Part shown: one piece after another, positions 2,093 to 14,381 of the stretch
Position numbering within the stretch: the stretch's first letter is position 1
Layout of the letters: the number at the start of each line of letters is the position of its first letter
Origin: Candidatus Methylomirabilis sp.
GTDB taxonomy: Bacteria > Methylomirabilota > Methylomirabilia > Methylomirabilales > Methylomirabilaceae
NCBI GenBank assembly: GCA_041498975.1
Contig: JBGQJI010000037.1
Location: 1-18,412, forward strand
Reading direction: 5' to 3'
DNA length: 18,412 nt
Translations under genes and position numbers: made by a program
The notes under the pieces: model-generated
Database searches by the model: none
What the model saw: the letters and a program-made list of their open reading frames with translations, nothing else
Told to the model about the DNA's origin: nothing

Positions 2093-2496
2093 GCCGGGCC
2101 GTCCTCGACACGAACGTCATCCTGTCGGCGCTCCTGTTTGGCGGCCGCACGGGCGGCTTGGTCAGTGCGTGGCAGACGGGGCGATTCCAGCTCCTTCTCC
2201 CCCGAGCGATCCTCGAGGAACTCCTCCGCGTCCTGGCCTATCCGAAGTTCCAATTGACCGAGGGGGAGATTCGTGGGCTCATTGAAGAGGAGCTGGTCCC
2301 GTTTGCAGAAACCGTGATCGTCCGGCGCCAGCTTGCCGTTCGGCTTCGCGATCCGGACGATCTCGCTGTGGTAGCCTGTGCGCTGACAGGTCGCGCTAGG
2401 TATCTGGTCACTGGAGACGCCGATCTCCTCAGCCTGGAGCGCATTCGGCGGGTGGAGGTGATCCGCCCTGCGGAATTCATTGGCCACCTCGGCTAA
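2089..2496 (+). CDS. vapC: PIN-domain (VapC-like) toxin
   Basis: RAVLDTNVILSALL, ILEEL, RDPDD, YLVTGDADLL: acidic catalytic residues of the PIN_3 type. Coupled to the antitoxin gene. Confidence 0.9.
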   Translation: MSRAVLDTNVILSALLFGGRTGGLVSAWQTGRFQLLLPRAILEELLRVLAYPKFQLTEGEIRGLIEEELVPFAETVIVRRQLAVRLRDPDDLAVVACALTGRARYLVTGDADLLSLERIRRVEVIRPAEFIGHLG

Positions 2497-2515
2497 CGAG
2501 ACCCGCGGTTCAGGA

Positions 2516-2540
2516 AGGGCACAGCAAGCAGCGCCCCTAC
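2516..2540 (-). repeat. GTAG-type REP-like palindrome, copy 1
   Basis: Minus strand GTAGGGGCGCTGCTTGCTGTGCCCT, 24/25 identical to 10585-10609. Confidence 0.75.
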
Positions 2541-2622
2541 CATAAGGCATATGGGATTTCCTTCGCCTTGGGGCTAGTATATAATCTTACGGGCGACAAA
2601 CATCCAATGGTTGGAGAGACGC

Positions 2623-2901
2623 GTGAAGGTCAACTTTTATGCGACGCTGCGGCAGATCGTGGGAAGCAAGACGAAGGAGCTTCCTCTCCCCAAGGGAACG
2701 ACGGTTCGGCAGTTGATTGAGGGCGTTCTCTCCGATTATCCAGGTCTCAAGCCGATGCTGTTCGATGAAATGGGGAAACTTCACGGTCATGTTCATGTGT
2801 TTATCAACGGACGGGATGCTCCCTATCTGCATGGAGGTCTGGAAGCTACGCTGGCTCCCGACGACACCGTTGATATCTTTCCGGCCACGGGTGGCGGATG
2901 A
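2623..2901 (+). CDS. moaD: MoaD/ThiS/SAMP-like ubiquitin-fold sulfur carrier (92 aa)
   Basis: GTG at 2623 after GGAGAG. MKVNFYATLRQIVG...VFINGRD...VDIFPATGGG with C-terminal Gly-Gly. TATAAT at 2580-2585. Lies near aor. Confidence 0.9.
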   Translation: MKVNFYATLRQIVGSKTKELPLPKGTTVRQLIEGVLSDYPGLKPMLFDEMGKLHGHVHVFINGRDAPYLHGGLEATLAPDDTVDIFPATGGG

Positions 2902-3173
2902 GCGCCCCCGGCTCAGTAAAGGTCTATGATAGGGAAATCCGCGGCGTGCCGTTGTGGATGGTCCGAGAATACCTGGAGCAACTGGGCGGGCAGAGCAAGG
3001 TTGATGGGTGGCTGAAAGGCCCCGGCTGGAAGGCTCGTCTGACACCACTAGACGATTACCGAATCGGGTCGCTATGTGTCGGCCAGGTGCGACTGGAATT
3101 GCAAGGAGATGCCAAAGCCGTTGCAGAGGTGAGAGACGCCCTGGAGAAGAGGCTCCTTCGGGCAGGAGGCTAA
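2898..3173 (+). CDS. DUF1952-like (MoaD-related C-terminal domain) protein
   Basis: REIRGVPLWMVREYLEQLGG...GPGWKARL...KRLLRAGG. ATGA overlap with moaD. The pattern matches the Thermus/haloarchaeal DUF1952 family as I recall it. Confidence 0.72.
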   Translation: MSAPGSVKVYDREIRGVPLWMVREYLEQLGGQSKVDGWLKGPGWKARLTPLDDYRIGSLCVGQVRLELQGDAKAVAEVRDALEKRLLRAGG

Positions 3174-3186
3174 GGTTTGGAGGGAT

Positions 3187-3259
3187 CCCTCTCATCCTCG
3201 CCTTCTCCCCGTGATCGGGGAGAAGGGATGAATAGCGACTCCTCACCGGGGAAAAGGGA
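3187..3259 (+). repeat. CCCTCTC...CCTTCTCCCC-loop-GGGGAGAAGG palindromic intergenic repeat, possibly a bidirectional terminator
   Basis: CCTTCTCCCCG-TGAT-CGGGGAGAAGG hairpin between convergent genes, followed by a degenerate second half. Related copies at 6650-6686 and 6826-6868. Confidence 0.65.
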
Positions 3260-3278
3260 AAGAAAAGGTACCGTTCGC

Positions 3279-5093
3279 CTACGGGATCTGCAGGGCTTTC
3301 AGCTTTGCCTCGGGCACCACGCCGTTGACCCAGCCGCGCGCCTTGTAATACTCCTCCAGCATCTGTGGAAGCTCGCAGACATGCCCCTTCGAGCCTCCCA
3401 GGGTGGACGGTTCCTTGAGGAACCGCTCCGGTAGGTAGTCGCTGCCCTCGCGGAACCCGATCAGGTTGTTGTAGTAGCGCTCCAGGTTGTAGATCCGCTC
3501 GCCTGCCTTCAGGACATCATCGACCGTGAAGGGGACGCCGACCATGATGGAATACTGCTGGGCGTACTCCTCCGCGCCCTCGGCGAACGCGCTGAACTTG
3601 CAGAGGTCCAGGCTGTCGGAGAAGGCGTGCAGATCCTGCAACAGCTTCATCAGCTCGCCCTTACCCTTCCAGGCCAGCGGGTCGCTCTTGAGCGGGATCA
3701 GGCCGAGCTCGCTGGCGGGGGAGTAGCCGCGCAGGTGACAGGCGCCCCGGTTGCTCGTGGCGTAGCCAAGGCCCATGCCCTTCAGGCCGCGCGGGTCGTA
3801 CGCGGGCATGGACTGGCCCTTGACCGTCATGGAGATCTCGGGGTGGCCGAAGTGCTTAGCGAGCCGCTCCGCCCCCTCGGCCAGCATGCTGCCGATTCCC
3901 TCGCGGAAGGCGGTCCTGCGAACAGCCTCAACCATGCCCGGAACATCGCCCCAGCGCAGGCCGCCGGTGTTGGTGTAGCCCTTCTCCGTGGCTTCCATGT
4001 ACACGGAGAGGACGTTTCCCATCTCGATGGCATCGACGCCATAGTCATTGCACATGTCAATCAGCTTGGCGATTCCGCCAATGTCATCGTTGTCACAGTT
4101 CGAGCCGAAGGCCCAGGCAGGTTCGTACTCCACACTCTCCATCCGCAAGCCTGCGTACGGCCCCTCCTTGATCTCGACCTCCTTCTTGCAGGCGACCGGG
4201 CAGGCGTGGCAGGTAGGGTCATCCACCAGGATGTGCTCTTTGACGTACTCGCCGCTGATCCGCTCGCCTCTCCCACCGAACGATGCGAACTGGCTGTTGC
4301 GGGTGGGCAGGGCGCCGATGCTGTCGTTGATGTTCATGAGCACGTTGGTGCCGTAGACGGAGAGACCGCCCTTGCGCGGGCTAGTGATGTTCTTCTCGTC
4401 CATGATGGTAGCCAGGGCGCGCCGATGGGCCGGTTTCCAGGCCTGGAGATCCTTGGCCTTGGGCATCCGCTTCTCGGACTTGACGACCACGGCCTTCAGG
4501 TGTTTTGCGCCGCCGACGCACGCCGTGCCCCCACGCCCGCTGGCGCGGTCGTGTTCGTTGACCCAGCACGCGAAGCGCGAGAAGTGCTCGCCGGCCTGCC
4601 CGATAGCCATCACGCTCAGATCCTTCTCGCCATAGCGCTGCTTGAAGAAGCGCACGGTGTCGTGGACGCCCTTGCCCCATACCTCCCGGGCATCCAGGAT
4701 TTCCACCTGGTCGTCGTGGACGTAGGCATAGACCGGCTTCTCTGCCTTGCCCTTGAAGATCAGCCCGTCGAAGCCGGCCCAGCGAAGCCGTGCCGCCGAC
4801 CAGCCGCCGTGATGGCTGTCGGTGACCGTCCCGGTGAGCGGGGATTTGGTGACGATGGCCAGCCGCCCGCTCATGTTGGCCTCCGTGCCGGTCAGAGGCC
4901 CGTTCATGAAGCAAAGGATGTTGTCGGGCGACAATGGATCCACCTGAGGGCCGTTCTCGAAGACATAACGGACGCCGAGTCCGCGCGCCCCGATGTACTT
5001 CAGCGCCCATTCTTCGGGGATAGGTTTGTAAGCGACCTTGCCCGCGGTCAGGTCAACGTGGGCGATTCGATTAGCATACCCTCCGAGCGACAT
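3279..5093 (-). CDS. aor: Tungsten-dependent aldehyde:ferredoxin oxidoreductase (604 aa)
   Basis: ATG at 5093 after GGGAGGAGG. AFOR motifs: GYANRIAHVDL, KSPLTG, AGFDGL, GRGG, CHACPVAC ([4Fe-4S]), EYE, YDPRG, RGACH, DSLDLCKF. Confidence 0.95.
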   Translation of the reverse strand: MSLGGYANRIAHVDLTAGKVAYKPIPEEWALKYIGARGLGVRYVFENGPQVDPLSPDNILCFMNGPLTGTEANMSGRLAIVTKSPLTGTVTDSHHGGWSAARLRWAGFDGLIFKGKAEKPVYAYVHDDQVEILDAREVWGKGVHDTVRFFKQRYGEKDLSVMAIGQAGEHFSRFACWVNEHDRASGRGGTACVGGAKHLKAVVVKSEKRMPKAKDLQAWKPAHRRALATIMDEKNITSPRKGGLSVYGTNVLMNINDSIGALPTRNSQFASFGGRGERISGEYVKEHILVDDPTCHACPVACKKEVEIKEGPYAGLRMESVEYEPAWAFGSNCDNDDIGGIAKLIDMCNDYGVDAIEMGNVLSVYMEATEKGYTNTGGLRWGDVPGMVEAVRRTAFREGIGSMLAEGAERLAKHFGHPEISMTVKGQSMPAYDPRGLKGMGLGYATSNRGACHLRGYSPASELGLIPLKSDPLAWKGKGELMKLLQDLHAFSDSLDLCKFSAFAEGAEEYAQQYSIMVGVPFTVDDVLKAGERIYNLERYYNNLIGFREGSDYLPERFLKEPSTLGGSKGHVCELPQMLEEYYKARGWVNGVVPEAKLKALQIP

Positions 5094-5127
5094 CTTTGCC
5101 TCCTCCCGTACCACTGTATTGCCCTGA

Positions 5128-5175
5128 AGTTTACGGAACCGACATCGAGTTGTCAGATAGCTATTGCACCCTGAC
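5128..5175 (-). promoter_or_regulatory. Putative aor promoter with overlapping inverted repeat
   Basis: Minus strand CTGACA (5156-5151), 17 bp spacer, TAAACT (5133-5128). GTCAG-N14-CTGAC repeat at 5152-5175 overlaps the -35. Confidence 0.45.
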
Positions 5176-5204
5176 GCTGGCCTCCTTTTCTCAATTGCAC
5201 CAGG

Positions 5205-6083
5205 TTATCTCCCCGGAGGGAAGATCGCGATCTCGTCCTTCTCGTGAACCGGGACGTCGAATCCTCCCGCGTAGTTGAGGTCGCGACCGTTGAGCAGGAC
5301 TCGCCAGCCCGGGCGAGGGACATACGTGGGGGTCAGCTCGACCCAGTGAGCGTCGCTTCTCTCCTCGGAGTTCCAGACGCGCTCCAGTGCCTCTGCGCGG
5401 GCTTGCGGGTAATACTCGAAGAACTTGCCCAGCATATCGGCCATGCTCGCCCCGTCCCGGGTGCCCACCTGGATCTCCTGCGTGCCCAACAGGGGTCGCA
5501 GGCGACCATAGACCAAACAGCGAAGGGAGAAGCTCCCCTCCTCCAGCTTTCGCGCGATTCGGTACCCGAGCTGCATCTGGTTCAGTTGCACGGCCAGGTA
5601 CTTGCTCCAGGCAGCCATCGCCGCGGCAACCACTCCTGCCGGCAGGCCCGCCTCTGCCATGTAGCGAGCGAACGCCGCCTGCACCAGCCCGACGGAGCCC
5701 GTCACATATTCGGATGAGGTATGGATGTGGCGTGGGCCGTGTCCGGCGTGATACTTCCCGGCGCGAAACAGGTAGTGGGCGAACTCATCGCTGCTGTCCA
5801 GGCCCAGGGTGCGGGCGAGCCACACCGTGAAGAAGCGGCGACGCTCTTCCAGATGTGCCTCATCCACGCCCTTCTCCCAGCCCAAGATGGCCGCTGTTTC
5901 AGGCACCCGGCGCAGGTAGTCGTAGGTCTCCACCACCAGTTCCGGGCCGCGCCGAAAGAGAACTTCAACGGAACGCGAGGCTGCAACCTTGTCGTCGTCG
6001 CCCCACCCCACAAAGCTCAACATGCGTCGCCATTCGTCCTGGGGTTCCGGCGCCAGGTTGCGCAGCTCTAACCCGTCGTCCAT
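5205..6083 (-). CDS. Protoglobin (sensor globin) fused to a C-terminal MoaD/ThiS-like ubiquitin-fold domain (about 292 aa)
   Basis: N-terminus: MLSFVGW, ETYDYL (B10 Tyr), WL, RAGKYH (proximal His F8). C-terminus: LVYGRLRPLLG...VLLNGRD...DEIAIFPPGR, paralogous to the MoaD at 2623-2901. Probable ATG at 6083. Confidence 0.85.
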   Translation of the reverse strand: MDDGLELRNLAPEPQDEWRRMLSFVGWGDDDKVAASRSVEVLFRRGPELVVETYDYLRRVPETAAILGWEKGVDEAHLEERRRFFTVWLARTLGLDSSDEFAHYLFRAGKYHAGHGPRHIHTSSEYVTGSVGLVQAAFARYMAEAGLPAGVVAAAMAAWSKYLAVQLNQMQLGYRIARKLEEGSFSLRCLVYGRLRPLLGTQEIQVGTRDGASMADMLGKFFEYYPQARAEALERVWNSEERSDAHWVELTPTYVPRPGWRVLLNGRDLNYAGGFDVPVHEKDEIAIFPPGR

Positions 6084-6116
6084 TGTTCTCTCGTGTTTTC
6101 TCTGGAGCAGGTGTGG

Positions 6117-6164
6117 TCGCAAATCGGTGCGAGCATTGTACTTCTCGTCCGGCAGGGAAAGCAA
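6117..6164 (-). promoter_or_regulatory. Putative promoter of the globin-Ubl gene with downstream palindrome
   Basis: TTGCTT (6164-6159), 18 bp spacer, TACAAT (6140-6135). TCGCA-N6-TGCGA palindrome at 6117-6132. Confidence 0.45.
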
Positions 6165-6170
6165 CTGGTT

Positions 6171-6617
6171 TCAGCGGGCGAGGACCAGCCGATCGAGGCA
6201 GCTATTCCATCCCTTGTCGTGGTCGTCGCGCGCTTTCTCGGTCGGGAAGAGTTCGTGCGTGACGACGACTTCGGTGGAATTCCCCCGATCGCGAAATTCG
6301 ACCATCACGAGTGTTTCTCCGAGTTCGGGCTCCGACTCCCAACGCCACGTGTACACGAGCTTTCCCGGGGGACGAACTTCGCGGTACGTTCCGGAAAGGT
6401 AGAACACTTCCCCGTTCGGAAGCTTCCTCATCCCGAGGCGGTATTTTCCGCCTACCCGCAGGTCCAGTTCGGCGGTCGGCGTCGCATACCCAACGGGGCC
6501 CCACCACTTCTTCAGCTCTTCCGCGTCGGTCCATGCCCGGAAGACTTTTTCGCGCGGCGCCGCGAAGGTCCGCATGATGCGGAGCGTGTTCGCTGCGCTC
6601 GGATTCGGCTTGACCAT
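6171..6617 (-). CDS. SRPBCC/AHSA1-like (START-fold) domain protein (148 aa)
   Basis: ATG at 6617 after GAGGAGG. LRIMRTFAAPREKVFRAWTD...WWGP, DLRVGGKY, GTYREV.PP.KLVYTW, GWNSCLDRL. Confidence 0.92.
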   Translation of the reverse strand: MVKPNPSAANTLRIMRTFAAPREKVFRAWTDAEELKKWWGPVGYATPTAELDLRVGGKYRLGMRKLPNGEVFYLSGTYREVRPPGKLVYTWRWESEPELGETLVMVEFRDRGNSTEVVVTHELFPTEKARDDHDKGWNSCLDRLVLAR

Positions 6618-6649
6618 CGGCGTTCCTCCTCTGGCTTTGCTCCGGAAGT

Positions 6650-6686
6650 CCCCCTCACCTTCATCCTCTCCCCACTGGGGGAGAGG
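6650..6686 (+). repeat. CCCCTCACC...CCTCTCCCC-loop-GGGGAGAGG palindromic repeat
   Basis: CCCCCTCACCTTCATCCTCTCCCCACTGGGGGAGAGG, same family as 3187-3228. Confidence 0.65.
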
Positions 6687-6712
6687 AAATATGAGTTGAC
6701 TGTGACGCAGTT

Positions 6713-6826
6713 TCATTCCCATCTGCGCGGCGAAGGCGCATGAGGCATTGATCGGTTTAGATAGTGGGCGAGAGCGTCGCAATTCTCCTCCCAATGGCGC
6801 AGGTAGCGGGCGATGCGGTCGGCAGT
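6713..6826 (-). pseudogene. 3' remnant of an ArsR/SmtB-family regulator
   Basis: Minus-frame translation TADRIARYLRHWEENCDALAHYLNRS...* matches the C-terminal helix (WI.RYR.FWE..LDAL..YL) of ArsR regulators encoded upstream of SRPBCC genes. No HTH part or start codon lies upstream. Confidence 0.6.
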
Positions 6827-6868
6827 CCCCTGAGGGGAGAAGGGAAGATTACCGGGGGTGAGAGCGGG
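6826..6868 (-). repeat. Truncated copy of the CCCTTCTCCCC/GGGGAGA repeat
   Basis: Minus strand CCCGCTCTCACCCCCGGTAATCTTCCCTTCTCCCCTCAGGGGA. The right arm ends at the ArsR remnant. Confidence 0.5.
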
Positions 6869-6875
6869 ACGATGA

Positions 6876-6894
6876 ACCGAGGCAGCCCCTCGGT
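6876..6894 (-). terminator. Hairpin directly after the lipoprotein stop codon
   Basis: ACCGAGG-N5-CCTCGGT, 7-bp stem with only a weak U-tract. Confidence 0.35.
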
Positions 6895-6897
6895 GCC

Positions 6898-7401
6898 TTA
6901 TTTCGCGAGATCCTGAAACGTGGCCTTTGATTTCCAGTAGACCCCGCGCACGACAAAGATCTCATCAGGGCCTGCCGTGGAGGTCAGCCAGAGCTGTTTT
7001 CCCGCAAGATCACCGTACTGAGCCTTTACGGGAAAGGTCACCAGGAGCATGCCTTCGTTGAGCTGGGCCAGGACCGTTCCCGCAGCCGACTTCACCTCTT
7101 CTGGTCTCACGATCATCCTGGCCTTCAGGTCAGGGTCTCGACGTTCGGCCCAGCGAATGCCCTCGCCGTCGGTGTTCTGGAAGACGAACCGCTTCGGCTG
7201 AAGTTGGCCCGGCGAAAAGAGGGGAAGAATGAGCTCCAGGGTCCCATTGTCGAGATACGCCACAGCGCCCGTTGCGGCACTGGATTCATAGCCGGAGGGA
7301 CCCGAGAGAGGATAGGTATAGGTGACCTTCGCGGGAAGGATCGCCGTCCCGGAGCAGCCGGCGAGCCACACCGCAATTAGGATCCATGCCACGCGCCTCA
7401 T
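6898..7401 (-). CDS. Hypothetical lipoprotein (167 aa)
   Basis: MRRVAWILIAVWLAGC lipobox signal with GGAGG RBS. No family recognised. Confidence 0.8.
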   Translation of the reverse strand: MRRVAWILIAVWLAGCSGTAILPAKVTYTYPLSGPSGYESSAATGAVAYLDNGTLELILPLFSPGQLQPKRFVFQNTDGEGIRWAERRDPDLKARMIVRPEEVKSAAGTVLAQLNEGMLLVTFPVKAQYGDLAGKQLWLTSTAGPDEIFVVRGVYWKSKATFQDLAK

Positions 7402-12492: not shown

Positions 12493-12515
<23 letters not shown>

Positions 12516-14268
12516 CCTTGCTGGACCGGCTCTCGGGCCGACCCGCCAGTGGCTCAGTGTATTCGGCCAGTGGGAAGCTGACGGTGACCACCGTCCCTTT
12601 GCCGAGGCCTTCACTCTGCACCTCGATGGTGCCCCGATGCTGCTCCACGATGCTCTGGCAGACGGCGAGGCCCAGACCCGTCCCCTTTCCCACCTCCTTG
12701 GTGGTGAAGAAGGGGTCGAACACCCTCGCGAGATTCTCCGGCAAGATCCCGCTGCCGGTATCCGACACGGACACGTCGAGCCATTCTTGCCCGGGGGTCC
12801 GCCCCGTCGCTTCCCGCCGTCGGGTCGCGACAATCCGGACCTCCCCGCCACCCTCGATGGCATCCAGCGCATTTGTCAGAAGGTTCAGGAAGACCTGCTG
12901 AAGCATCTGGGCATCCGCCTGGACCATGCTCCCCTCTGGAAATGAAGCCACGACGATCTGCTGATTCGCAAGGCTGGCCTGTCGCTGCACGAAAGACACG
13001 GCATCCGCCACCACGATCGAGAGGTCCACCAGGCCGAAGGAGGGCTCGCGCTGCCGGGCGAAATCGAGCAGGCGGCGGACGATGGCGGCCGCGCGGTTCA
13101 CTTCCTCCTGGATCATGATGACATACTCCTGGAATTCGGCCAGGCCCGAGGGGCTTGCGACCTCCCCTGCCCCAGCACGACGCTGGAGGGCCTCGGCGAA
13201 GCCGGCCACCGAGGAGAGAGGATTGTTGAGCTCGTGCGCCAGGCCCGCCGCCAAACGGCCGAGAGAGGCCAACTTCTCCTGCCGCACCAGCAACTGCTGC
13301 GACTGCTTCAGCTCGTCGTAGGAGCGCCGCAGCTCCTCATACAGGCTGGCGTTCTCGAGGGCGATGGCCGCCTGGGTGGCCAGCGTCATGGCAAGGGCCT
13401 CATCCTCTCCATTGAACTCCTCGCCCCCTCGCTTCTCGGTCACGTAGAGGTTGCCGAGGACCTTACCCTTTGAGATGACGGGCACGCCGAGGAACGATTT
13501 CATCGGGGGGTGGTTGGGCGGAAAGCCGTGGGCTCTGGGATCCCTTGCCAGATCTTTCAGGCGCAGCAGCTTCGCCTCGCGCACGACAACTCCCAGGATC
13601 CCCTTCCCGACGGGCAGCGGACCGATGGCCCGCTTGGTCATCTCATCGATCCCTGCAGTGATGAACCGGCGGAGGCCGCCCTTCTCATCCAGGACGCCGA
13701 GGGCGGCATACTTCGCATTCACTAACTTGCAGGCCATGTTGGCGATCCTCTGCAGCACCGCCTCGAGGGAGAGCTTGGCAGTGAGGATCATCCCCGTCTT
13801 CACGAGCATCCGGAGCTGGCCCACTCCTCTCTTGCTGAAGTCTTCCCGTTCCTCCGCAATGACGAAGGCCACATGAGCCAATAGACGGTCGGCCACGGGC
13901 GAATAGAGATCAAGGGCCTTCGTCAGTCTCTGCATCTCCCCTCGATATCTCCTGAAGAGCGATCGCCTGAAGACGTCATGGAGCGTGAGGATGCCTTCCA
14001 TCGCGCGTTCAGGGGTCATGCCTTCCGCCACACCCTGCATCGCCATAGACCGGGCATGGTCCAGGCCGGCCTCGTGCTTCCCGCTTTCCAGAGCGGCCAC
14101 GCAGAAATCGTAGAGCGCGCTGAACTCGCTCCCGATCCCCTTCGAGCTGAGGCCCTTCAAGAAACCCTTCGCCCTCATCCGCTGGACCCACTCCCGCCGC
14201 AGCGCTTCTCGCTTCTCGCGAAAGTGCGCAACCAGTTCTTCCCGTAGCGTGTTACTCCGCCGCTCCAT
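12493..14268 (-). CDS. Cytoplasmic sensor histidine kinase: RsbRD_N-like domain, DosS-type GAF, HisKA, HATPase
   Basis: GAF motif HGFPPNHPPMKSFLGVP, H-box AHELNNPL, N-box NLLTNALDA, DTGSGI, FDPFFTTK, GTGLGL. No transmembrane segment seen. Alternative start at 14310. Confidence 0.92.
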
Positions 14269-14381
14269 CGCCGCACCGCGCTTCAACTTGAACCCGCCGC
14301 TGCGCCACATCGCGGCCGGTCATGGCCGGACCCCCGAGCATATCCCTTCTCTCATCTCCTGACGCCTTTCCAGAAGGCTGC

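Follow-up and report, generated by a model that had tools for sequence, protein, structure and literature searches.

A conserved protoglobin–MoaD-like fusion lacking the Gly-Gly end, genetically tied to a tungsten-type aldehyde:ferredoxin oxidoreductase module

The DNA analysed here (the 'window') is an 18,412-nucleotide stretch of contig JBGQJI010000037.1 from a Candidatus Methylomirabilis sp. genome. On its minus strand, it carries a gene that joins an N-terminal globin of the Protoglobin family to a C-terminal domain resembling the sulfur carrier MoaD, with a tungsten-type aldehyde:ferredoxin oxidoreductase (AOR) encoded immediately downstream. The fusion represents a conserved and apparently undescribed family, in which a protoglobin-type globin is combined with a non-activatable MoaD domain, and which is genetically tied to the tungsten AOR module. 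The features of the fusion gene are:

5205..6083, minus strand: globin–MoaD-like fusion gene, 292 amino acids plus stop (open reading frame and translation)
5580..6038, minus strand: Protoglobin-family globin domain, residues 16-168 (Pfam PF11563, fold matches)
5922-5924, minus strand: codon of the B10 Tyr54 (alignment to AfGcHK, PDB 5ohe)
5748-5750, minus strand: codon of the proximal (F8) His112 (alignment to AfGcHK, PDB 5ohe)
5208..5531, minus strand: MoaD/ThiS-type beta-grasp domain, residues ~185-292 (Pfam ThiS, profile and Foldseek matches)
5208..5219, minus strand: invariant C-terminal Pro-Pro-Gly-Arg, residues 289-292, replacing the xGG tail of MoaD (conservation)

Translation of the open reading frame (ORF) fixes these coordinates exactly, with the start at the ATG at 6083 and the stop at 5205-5207; a longer frame from a TTG at 6164 was rejected because the relatives are mostly 292 amino acids long. 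An earlier note, made from the letters alone, had read the protein as a globin followed by a ThiS/MoaD-type domain; Pfam, an AlphaFold2 model and Foldseek agree that this architecture is real, ThiS being the sole second-domain match returned by Pfam. The model, for which the fusion-family alignment served as input, has a pLDDT of 95.2 and a pTM of 0.91, with the last two residues weaker (block mean 66); the pTM suggests that the two domains, as predicted, form a fixed, compact unit. A search for longer fused forms, of 512-2000 amino acids, found none at E<=1e-10, a negative that carries little weight.

The N-terminal half matches PF11563 at residues 16-168 with 48.4 bits (E 1.3e-12; the cut-off is 25), and with 49.8 bits in the genome search. 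Compared with the PDB by Foldseek, it is most like the globins of Tlr1989 (8h17), AfGcHK (5ohe) and GsGCS (2w31), with TMt values of 0.85-0.86; the protoglobin of Methanosarcina acetivorans follows at 0.73-0.75 (2veb at 0.73). Model and fold matches together place it within the 3-on-3 globin fold seen in both globin-coupled sensors (GCSs) and protoglobins. As the earlier note had it, the distal Tyr at B10 and the proximal His are both kept: in the alignment to 5ohe these are Y54 and H112 (B10 and F8 being the positions of the two residues in AfGcHK), and each is invariant in an alignment of 57 fusion-family members. That alignment also contains invariant globin motifs specific to the fusion: ILGWE at 66-70, R81, R82 and W88.

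The label 'globin-coupled sensor', which the same note had attached to the protein, is not secured by these data. An exhaustive search finds the nearest globins outside the family at ~24-35% identity, and most of the 19 Protoglobin-bearing outside relatives checked are single-domain protoglobins, the closest having 181-201 amino acids. Five of the 19, these too ranking among the closest outside relatives, are instead fused to a Rieske [2Fe-2S] domain (P0195, P0197, P0199, P0211 and P0212), one of these additionally bearing CDGSH and Fer4_19, and a signalling domain is present in none. We know of no description of the protoglobin–Rieske architecture. At the C-terminus of the fusion itself no known signalling transmitter domain was found: ThiS is the only Pfam match there, and the half is identified as SAMP1/MoaD by Foldseek and profile search alike.

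For this C-terminal half the match to ThiS (PF02597, residues 191-290) scores 21.2 bits (E 4.4e-4), slightly below the cut-off of 22.5, with the same stretch reaching 22.6 bits in a six-frame search of the genome. Foldseek aligns it to SAMP1 (3po0 and 2l52) at a TMt of 0.73-0.80, and also to 1vjk and 1v8c; a profile search of PDB sequences returns 2m19, 2l52, 1v8c and 1vjk. All of the profile alignments end at a common FPP, beyond which the solved proteins run on to GG. The insert that had been noticed in this domain is genuine, amounting to ~15 residues relative to the neighbouring MoaD of the window (hand count) and ~11 relative to SAMP1, where a gap of that length opens in 2l52 along the alignment of residues 186-291. 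In the AlphaFold2 model it takes the form of a hairpin at about residues 238-256, with strands predicted at 233-241 and 248-256. A beta-grasp domain of the Fe-S ferredoxin type was rejected as an alternative, since the domain in the window has a single Cys, the position of which is not invariant in the family.

PPGR is the ending of 119 of the 121 sequences whose C-termini were inspected (the best 120 relatives plus the window ORF); the other two are a sequence with PIGR and a truncated one, and GG occurs in none. The same four residues close the more distant but full-length P0122, P0124, P0126, P0127 and P0141 (36-59% identity), as well as P0136, whose reading frame is disturbed in the globin half, and P289, P290, G291 and R292 are all invariant among the 57 members. 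A local mutation or sequencing error is thereby rejected, PPGR being kept family-wide, and the GG-less end reported in the earlier note stands; as homologs of the fusion do not end in GG, the finding that the note itself had named as fatal to its proposal has not materialised. E1-type enzymes adenylate MoaD and ThiS at their Gly-Gly end. The fusion has PPGR where such carriers have their C-terminal Gly-Gly and, with the Gly-Gly lost, the domain therefore cannot carry sulfur or be conjugated.

The closest sequence affinity of the C-domain lies with the AOR-linked subfamily of MoaD. A hidden Markov model (HMM) built from the C-terminal columns of the family, and searched against six-frame ORFs of the window genome and of the fetched loci, gives 35-45 bits to 12 full-length AOR-adjacent MoaDs (E 1e-8 to 1e-11), 20 bits to a truncated one in locus L001 and <=19 bits to the remaining MoaD/ThiS ORFs of the window genome; the homology to the neighbouring MoaD proposed at the outset is thus borne out. 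GG is retained in all 13 of 13 AOR-linked MoaDs, some with 2-4 residues beyond it. Those proteins are small and stand alone with a free GG end; the fusion is joined to a globin and ends GR. The simplest history is one in which an AOR-linked MoaD was duplicated, the copy then being fused to a globin, losing its GG and gaining the hairpin insert.

In terms of distribution, a search of 5.8 billion proteins yielded 882 relatives of the fusion at E<=1e-3. The best 120 of the 882 share 60-96% identity with it and are 272-320 amino acids long, usually 292; those with a named source are mainly from Chloroflexota or Anaerolineae, and many of the 120 carry a precomputed PF02597 match. An index-free search of 1.84 billion cluster representatives gave 126 matches, few of which are full-length, divergent members of the family. 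Databases already label the family automatically, e.g. as 'Protoglobin/ThiS family domain-containing protein'. In a literature search with subscription-only papers outside its scope, we found no paper on the combination of protoglobin with MoaD/ThiS, in line with the expectation that the architecture had not been characterised, and none on globins together with AOR and Chloroflexi.

Alongside the fusion gene, the window contains the following members of an AOR module:

3279..5093, minus strand: tungsten-type AOR (Pfam AFOR_N E 4.5e-71, AFOR_C E 2.4e-128)
2656..2901, plus strand: AOR-linked MoaD with an intact GGG end, FPATGGG (Pfam ThiS, 41.4 bits), convergent with the AOR gene
2898..3173, plus strand: DUF1952 protein (Pfam PF09189, E 8e-7), its start overlapping the MoaD stop (ATGA)

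A gap of 111 nt separates the fusion gene from the AOR gene downstream of it, both genes having the same orientation. Judged from the sequence, its start is likely the ATG at 5093 and not the GTG at 5114 chosen by the mechanical ORF call: a strong GGAGGAGG motif precedes the ATG, and the corresponding Met (M8) is invariant in 16 orthologs, in which the C-x2-C-x3-C motif is also retained. A promoter/terminator scan of 2400-7000 gave nothing above chance between the fusion and the AOR gene, with two promoter-like sites against 0.9 expected and no terminator in 5094-5204; the same-strand spacing of 111 nt is therefore the one observation that suggests co-transcription. Directly upstream of the fusion gene, at 6171-6617 on the minus strand, lies a gene for an AHSA1/SRPBCC protein. 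The related contig of L001, from a metagenome-assembled genome, has two AHSA1/SRPBCC copies and a cytochrome P450, and the AHSA1/SRPBCC gene was not found in the Chloroflexota loci.

Gene context was compared across 18 loci from species-representative genomes, with a Pfam scan covering 125 of the 145 neighbouring ORFs (those omitted being mainly ORFs over the fusion gene itself). In 12 of the 18 an AOR ortholog, 70-97% identical, lies downstream of the fusion on the same strand, directly adjacent in 11; AOR adjacency is thus a property of the fusion in these 12 loci and in the window. Five of the loci continue from the AOR into a MoaD gene (L001, L003, L007, L009 and L015), DUF1952 being present in all of these bar L003, where it was not detected. 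MoaD and DUF1952 adjoin one another in L001, L007, L009, L028, L029 and L032, and are separated by a PUCC/MFS gene in L015. On the other side, acetyl-CoA synthetase directly precedes the fusion in L005, L006, L008 and L016, and an Fe-ADH gene is upstream of it in L004; a radical SAM-SPASM gene occurs in L003, and tungstate/molybdate-type ABC transporters with ArsR-PBP_like or MoeA-PBP_like genes in L004, L012 and L018. Neither a MoaE nor a ThiF/MoeB-type domain was found among the ORFs scanned. Of the three partners that had been suggested for the C-domain, namely AOR, MoaE and MoeB, gene context points to AOR. The identities of fusion and AOR to the window copies also co-vary from locus to locus, which is weak evidence, the genomes being related and hence not independent. 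In L002 (7045-10919) a CooF-like 4Fe-4S protein, a Prismane/CODH-family gene and a pyridine-nucleotide disulfide oxidoreductase stand between fusion and AOR, all on one strand; an arrangement that hints at a link to CO metabolism.

Association was also assessed in 151 evenly drawn Chloroflexota genomes, counting as orthologs AORs of 71% identity or more. The fusion is found in five, an AOR ortholog in 11 and both in four. A GG-ended MoaD adjoins the AOR in all seven genomes that have the AOR but not the fusion, and these often carry DUF1952, radical SAM-SPASM or MoeA-PBP_like genes as well. The core module is accordingly AOR plus MoaD plus maturation genes, and the fusion is an optional accessory to it. 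In the other direction, the fusion seems not to occur without an AOR of this type. Of the six genomes with no AOR at the fusion locus, all but that of L017 were searched for one elsewhere: among these five, two contain an ortholog (79% and 70% identity) and three have contig-edge AOR fragments alone, at 68-84% identity.

Several known systems share parts of this architecture. Like the GCSs HemAT, AfGcHK, EcDosC and BpeGReg, the fusion has an N-terminal globin of the S family with B10 Tyr and F8 His; its globin fold agrees with those of 5ohe, 2w31 and 4uiq at a TMt of 0.82-0.86, and in both cases a second domain follows the H helix. The outputs of known GCSs are, according to two surveys, MCP, GGDEF, EAL, HD-GYP, kinase or membrane domains (PMC8076648, PMC10882959). 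Set against the classes given there, the fusion differs in its output domain, in having no middle or linker domain, in its compact model and in having protoglobins as nearest relatives. With the protoglobins, such as MaPgb of M. acetivorans and that of Aeropyrum pernix, the fusion shares its Pfam family and a Foldseek E of about 1e-5; identity to MaPgb is nonetheless ~17-18% by structural alignment, and the fusion adds the beta-grasp domain and its own invariant motifs. The AOR-linked MoaDs, among them TK1065/UblC of Thermococcus kodakarensis, have in common with it the beta-grasp body, the NGRD and FPP motifs and adjacency to AOR, but possess the Gly-Gly end and lack both the ~15-residue insert and the globin. 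A further parallel is the MoaD-related Thermus thermophilus protein of PDB entry 1V8C, where the FPP strand likewise continues into more protein and leaves no free GG, the profile alignment ending at residue 83 of 168. There, MoaD and DUF1952 form one chain, whereas in the window the same two domains are encoded by separate, overlapping genes beside the AOR; the partner domain is DUF1952 in 1V8C and a globin in the fusion. We know of no function for the 1V8C protein. Flavohemoglobin and other globins fused to redox domains resemble the fusion by analogy only, in that a redox module, attached or docked, feeds the globin with electrons; the fusion itself contains neither a flavin nor an iron-sulfur domain, and any electrons would have to come from the AOR, a separate protein.

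The pairing of MoaD with AOR is itself well documented. Iyer et al. 2006 describe a strict adjacency of MoaD genes to AOR, as well as a MoaD–AOR fusion in Azoarcus, and their text does not contain the word globin (PMC1779556); the association is confirmed by Makarova and Koonin 2010 (PMC2948915). For T. kodakarensis, one study reports reduced AOR and FOR activity on deletion of the ubiquitin-like sulfur carriers, the AOR-adjacent TK1065 among them, speculates that cognate ubiquitin-like proteins target cofactor to particular apo-enzymes, and leaves open how particular carriers serve particular tungsten enzymes (PMC11323500).

Taking these observations together, we propose that the fusion is an optional heme accessory of the tungsten-AOR module, which docks through its non-activatable MoaD domain and whose heme state modulates AOR; a tentative reading, to which we assign a probability of roughly 45%. 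It starts from what the data establish, namely the architecture and how widely it is conserved, the descent of the C-domain and the linkage to AOR; heme binding, docking and gating by a ligand are inferred. The protoglobin-type globin would most likely bind heme b via His112, Tyr54 being the distal residue, and report O2, NO, CO or redox state. The C-domain, descended from an AOR-linked MoaD, has kept the beta-grasp body together with an invariant and probably flexible PPGR tail; it may dock at the site used by the genuine MoaD, whether on apo- or holo-AOR or on the tungsten-cofactor maturation machinery. The state of the heme would then modulate delivery of cofactor to the AOR, its activity, or its protection, tungsten AORs being oxygen-sensitive. 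A more specific form of the idea, possible but on balance doubtful, is a heme-gated mimic of MoaD: with O2 or NO bound, the globin would shift the GG-less domain, whose invariant Gly-Arg tail would plug or unplug a site on the AOR or on the machinery that loads its cofactor.

A number of findings weigh against the proposed heme accessory. The argument for heme binding consists of two residues and a predicted fold. No MCP, GGDEF or kinase domain occurs in any of the 19 Protoglobin-bearing outside relatives, which favours a redox role; as the nearest outside globins are non-signalling, a redox partner has to be treated as a serious rival, although we consider it rather doubtful. Here the MoaD-like domain would tether the globin to AOR, the heme taking electrons from the [4Fe-4S] cluster and reducing O2 or NO; by analogy with flavohemoglobin, the outcome would be an aldehyde-driven scavenger guarding the tungsten site, an extension that we think equally doubtful. 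The five Rieske fusions among those 19 relatives fit such a role, as do the same-strand adjacency in 12 of the 18 loci and the absence of a ferredoxin gene beside the AOR, both in the window and in the loci where fusion and AOR are directly adjacent. Saying this, fusion-less AOR orthologs likewise have no neighbouring ferredoxin gene, so that its absence is unspecific, and it counts against the idea that we know of no electron-transfer docking role for MoaD-type beta-grasp domains.

Further points against concern the strength of the tie to AOR. Seven of the 11 Chloroflexota genomes with an AOR ortholog lack the fusion, and the AOR tree intermingles enzymes that have it with others that do not; AOR function or maturation can therefore do without it. 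Six of the 18 fusion loci have no adjacent AOR: in L011 (2400-5989) and L013 (3691-4926), both Chloroflexales-type loci, the fusion follows a YeeE-type Sulf_transp gene, with a rhodanese also present in the former, and in L010 Rex lies downstream. These six loci could be taken to mean that the fusion serves something else, for example sulfur or redox homeostasis, its adjacency to AOR reflecting co-regulation or co-transfer. That is quite unlikely in our judgement, given that AOR orthologs or edge fragments turned up in all five of the corresponding genomes searched, that the C-domain is related specifically to the AOR-linked MoaD and, more weakly for genomes that are related, that fusion and AOR identities co-vary. 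A decoy acting on the general cofactor pathway also seems unlikely; the GG-less domain would occupy MoaE (the large subunit of molybdopterin synthase) or MoeB, and so throttle molybdopterin/tungstopterin synthesis according to heme state. A MoaD-derived domain with an invariantly altered tail would suit this purpose, the window genome has a canonical MoaD–MoaE pair on another contig, and MoeA-PBP_like and tungstate/molybdate-type transporter genes recur nearby; but neither MoaE nor a ThiF/MoeB-type domain turned up in the 125 of 145 neighbouring ORFs scanned at the 18 loci, a single AOR subfamily is linked to the fusion rather than the pathway at large (four AOR paralogs against one fusion gene in the window genome), and a tail two residues shorter than that of MoaD may fail to reach an active site.

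The retention next to AOR of a MoaD-derived domain that cannot be activated speaks for recognition of some part of the AOR module by the MoaD body itself. A globin family locked to one enzyme module would also supply a concrete, testable partner for a protoglobin, a group for which we know of no established physiological role. Members of the genus Methylomirabilis make NO and O2 internally, yet the module of an oxygen-sensitive AOR is present in a genome of this type as well as in Chloroflexota lineages; a heme protein dedicated to such enzymes could account for their protection or switching. If the docking role is true, the partner domains known for globins would gain a protein-docking ubiquitin fold; a heme-gated mimic, if true, would be the first globin with a ubiquitin-fold output and, to our knowledge, the first case in which a gas controls a tungsten enzyme directly at the protein level.

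As to the origin of the locus, the histidine-kinase gene at 12493..14310 has counterparts of 65-86% identity in 19 of 19 same-genus genomes, while fusion and AOR occur together in one of the 19 (G016), i.e. in two of 20 counting the window genome, and orthologs of neither were found in 21 same-order genomes. In the AOR tree, the window AOR nests inside a Chloroflexota clade. Its rarity within the genus and this nesting make the module look like an island gained by horizontal transfer, with the MoaD–DUF1952–AOR–fusion cluster (2600-6700) appearing, on phylogenetic grounds, to have come from Chloroflexota. Four DNA read runs gave short contigs, with no single piece bridging the AOR island and the genus-core genes; read depths of island and core are similar in each of the four, which is weak evidence, and an assembly or binning artefact might still lie behind the island, there being no independent bridging contig. 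The window genome (G000, 2.7 Mb) has four AOR paralogs, one fusion gene and ten ThiS-family matches, the AOR/ThiS matches being covered by contigs C28, C36, C240 and C43; a second AOR, on C36, is followed by a ThiS-like ORF, and the canonical MoaD–MoaE pair is on C43. Elsewhere in the window, 459-1823 on the minus strand encodes a 454-amino-acid protein with HSDR_N (restriction-enzyme N-terminal) and DUF5655 domains, the GC content there being ~52% against ~63% elsewhere.
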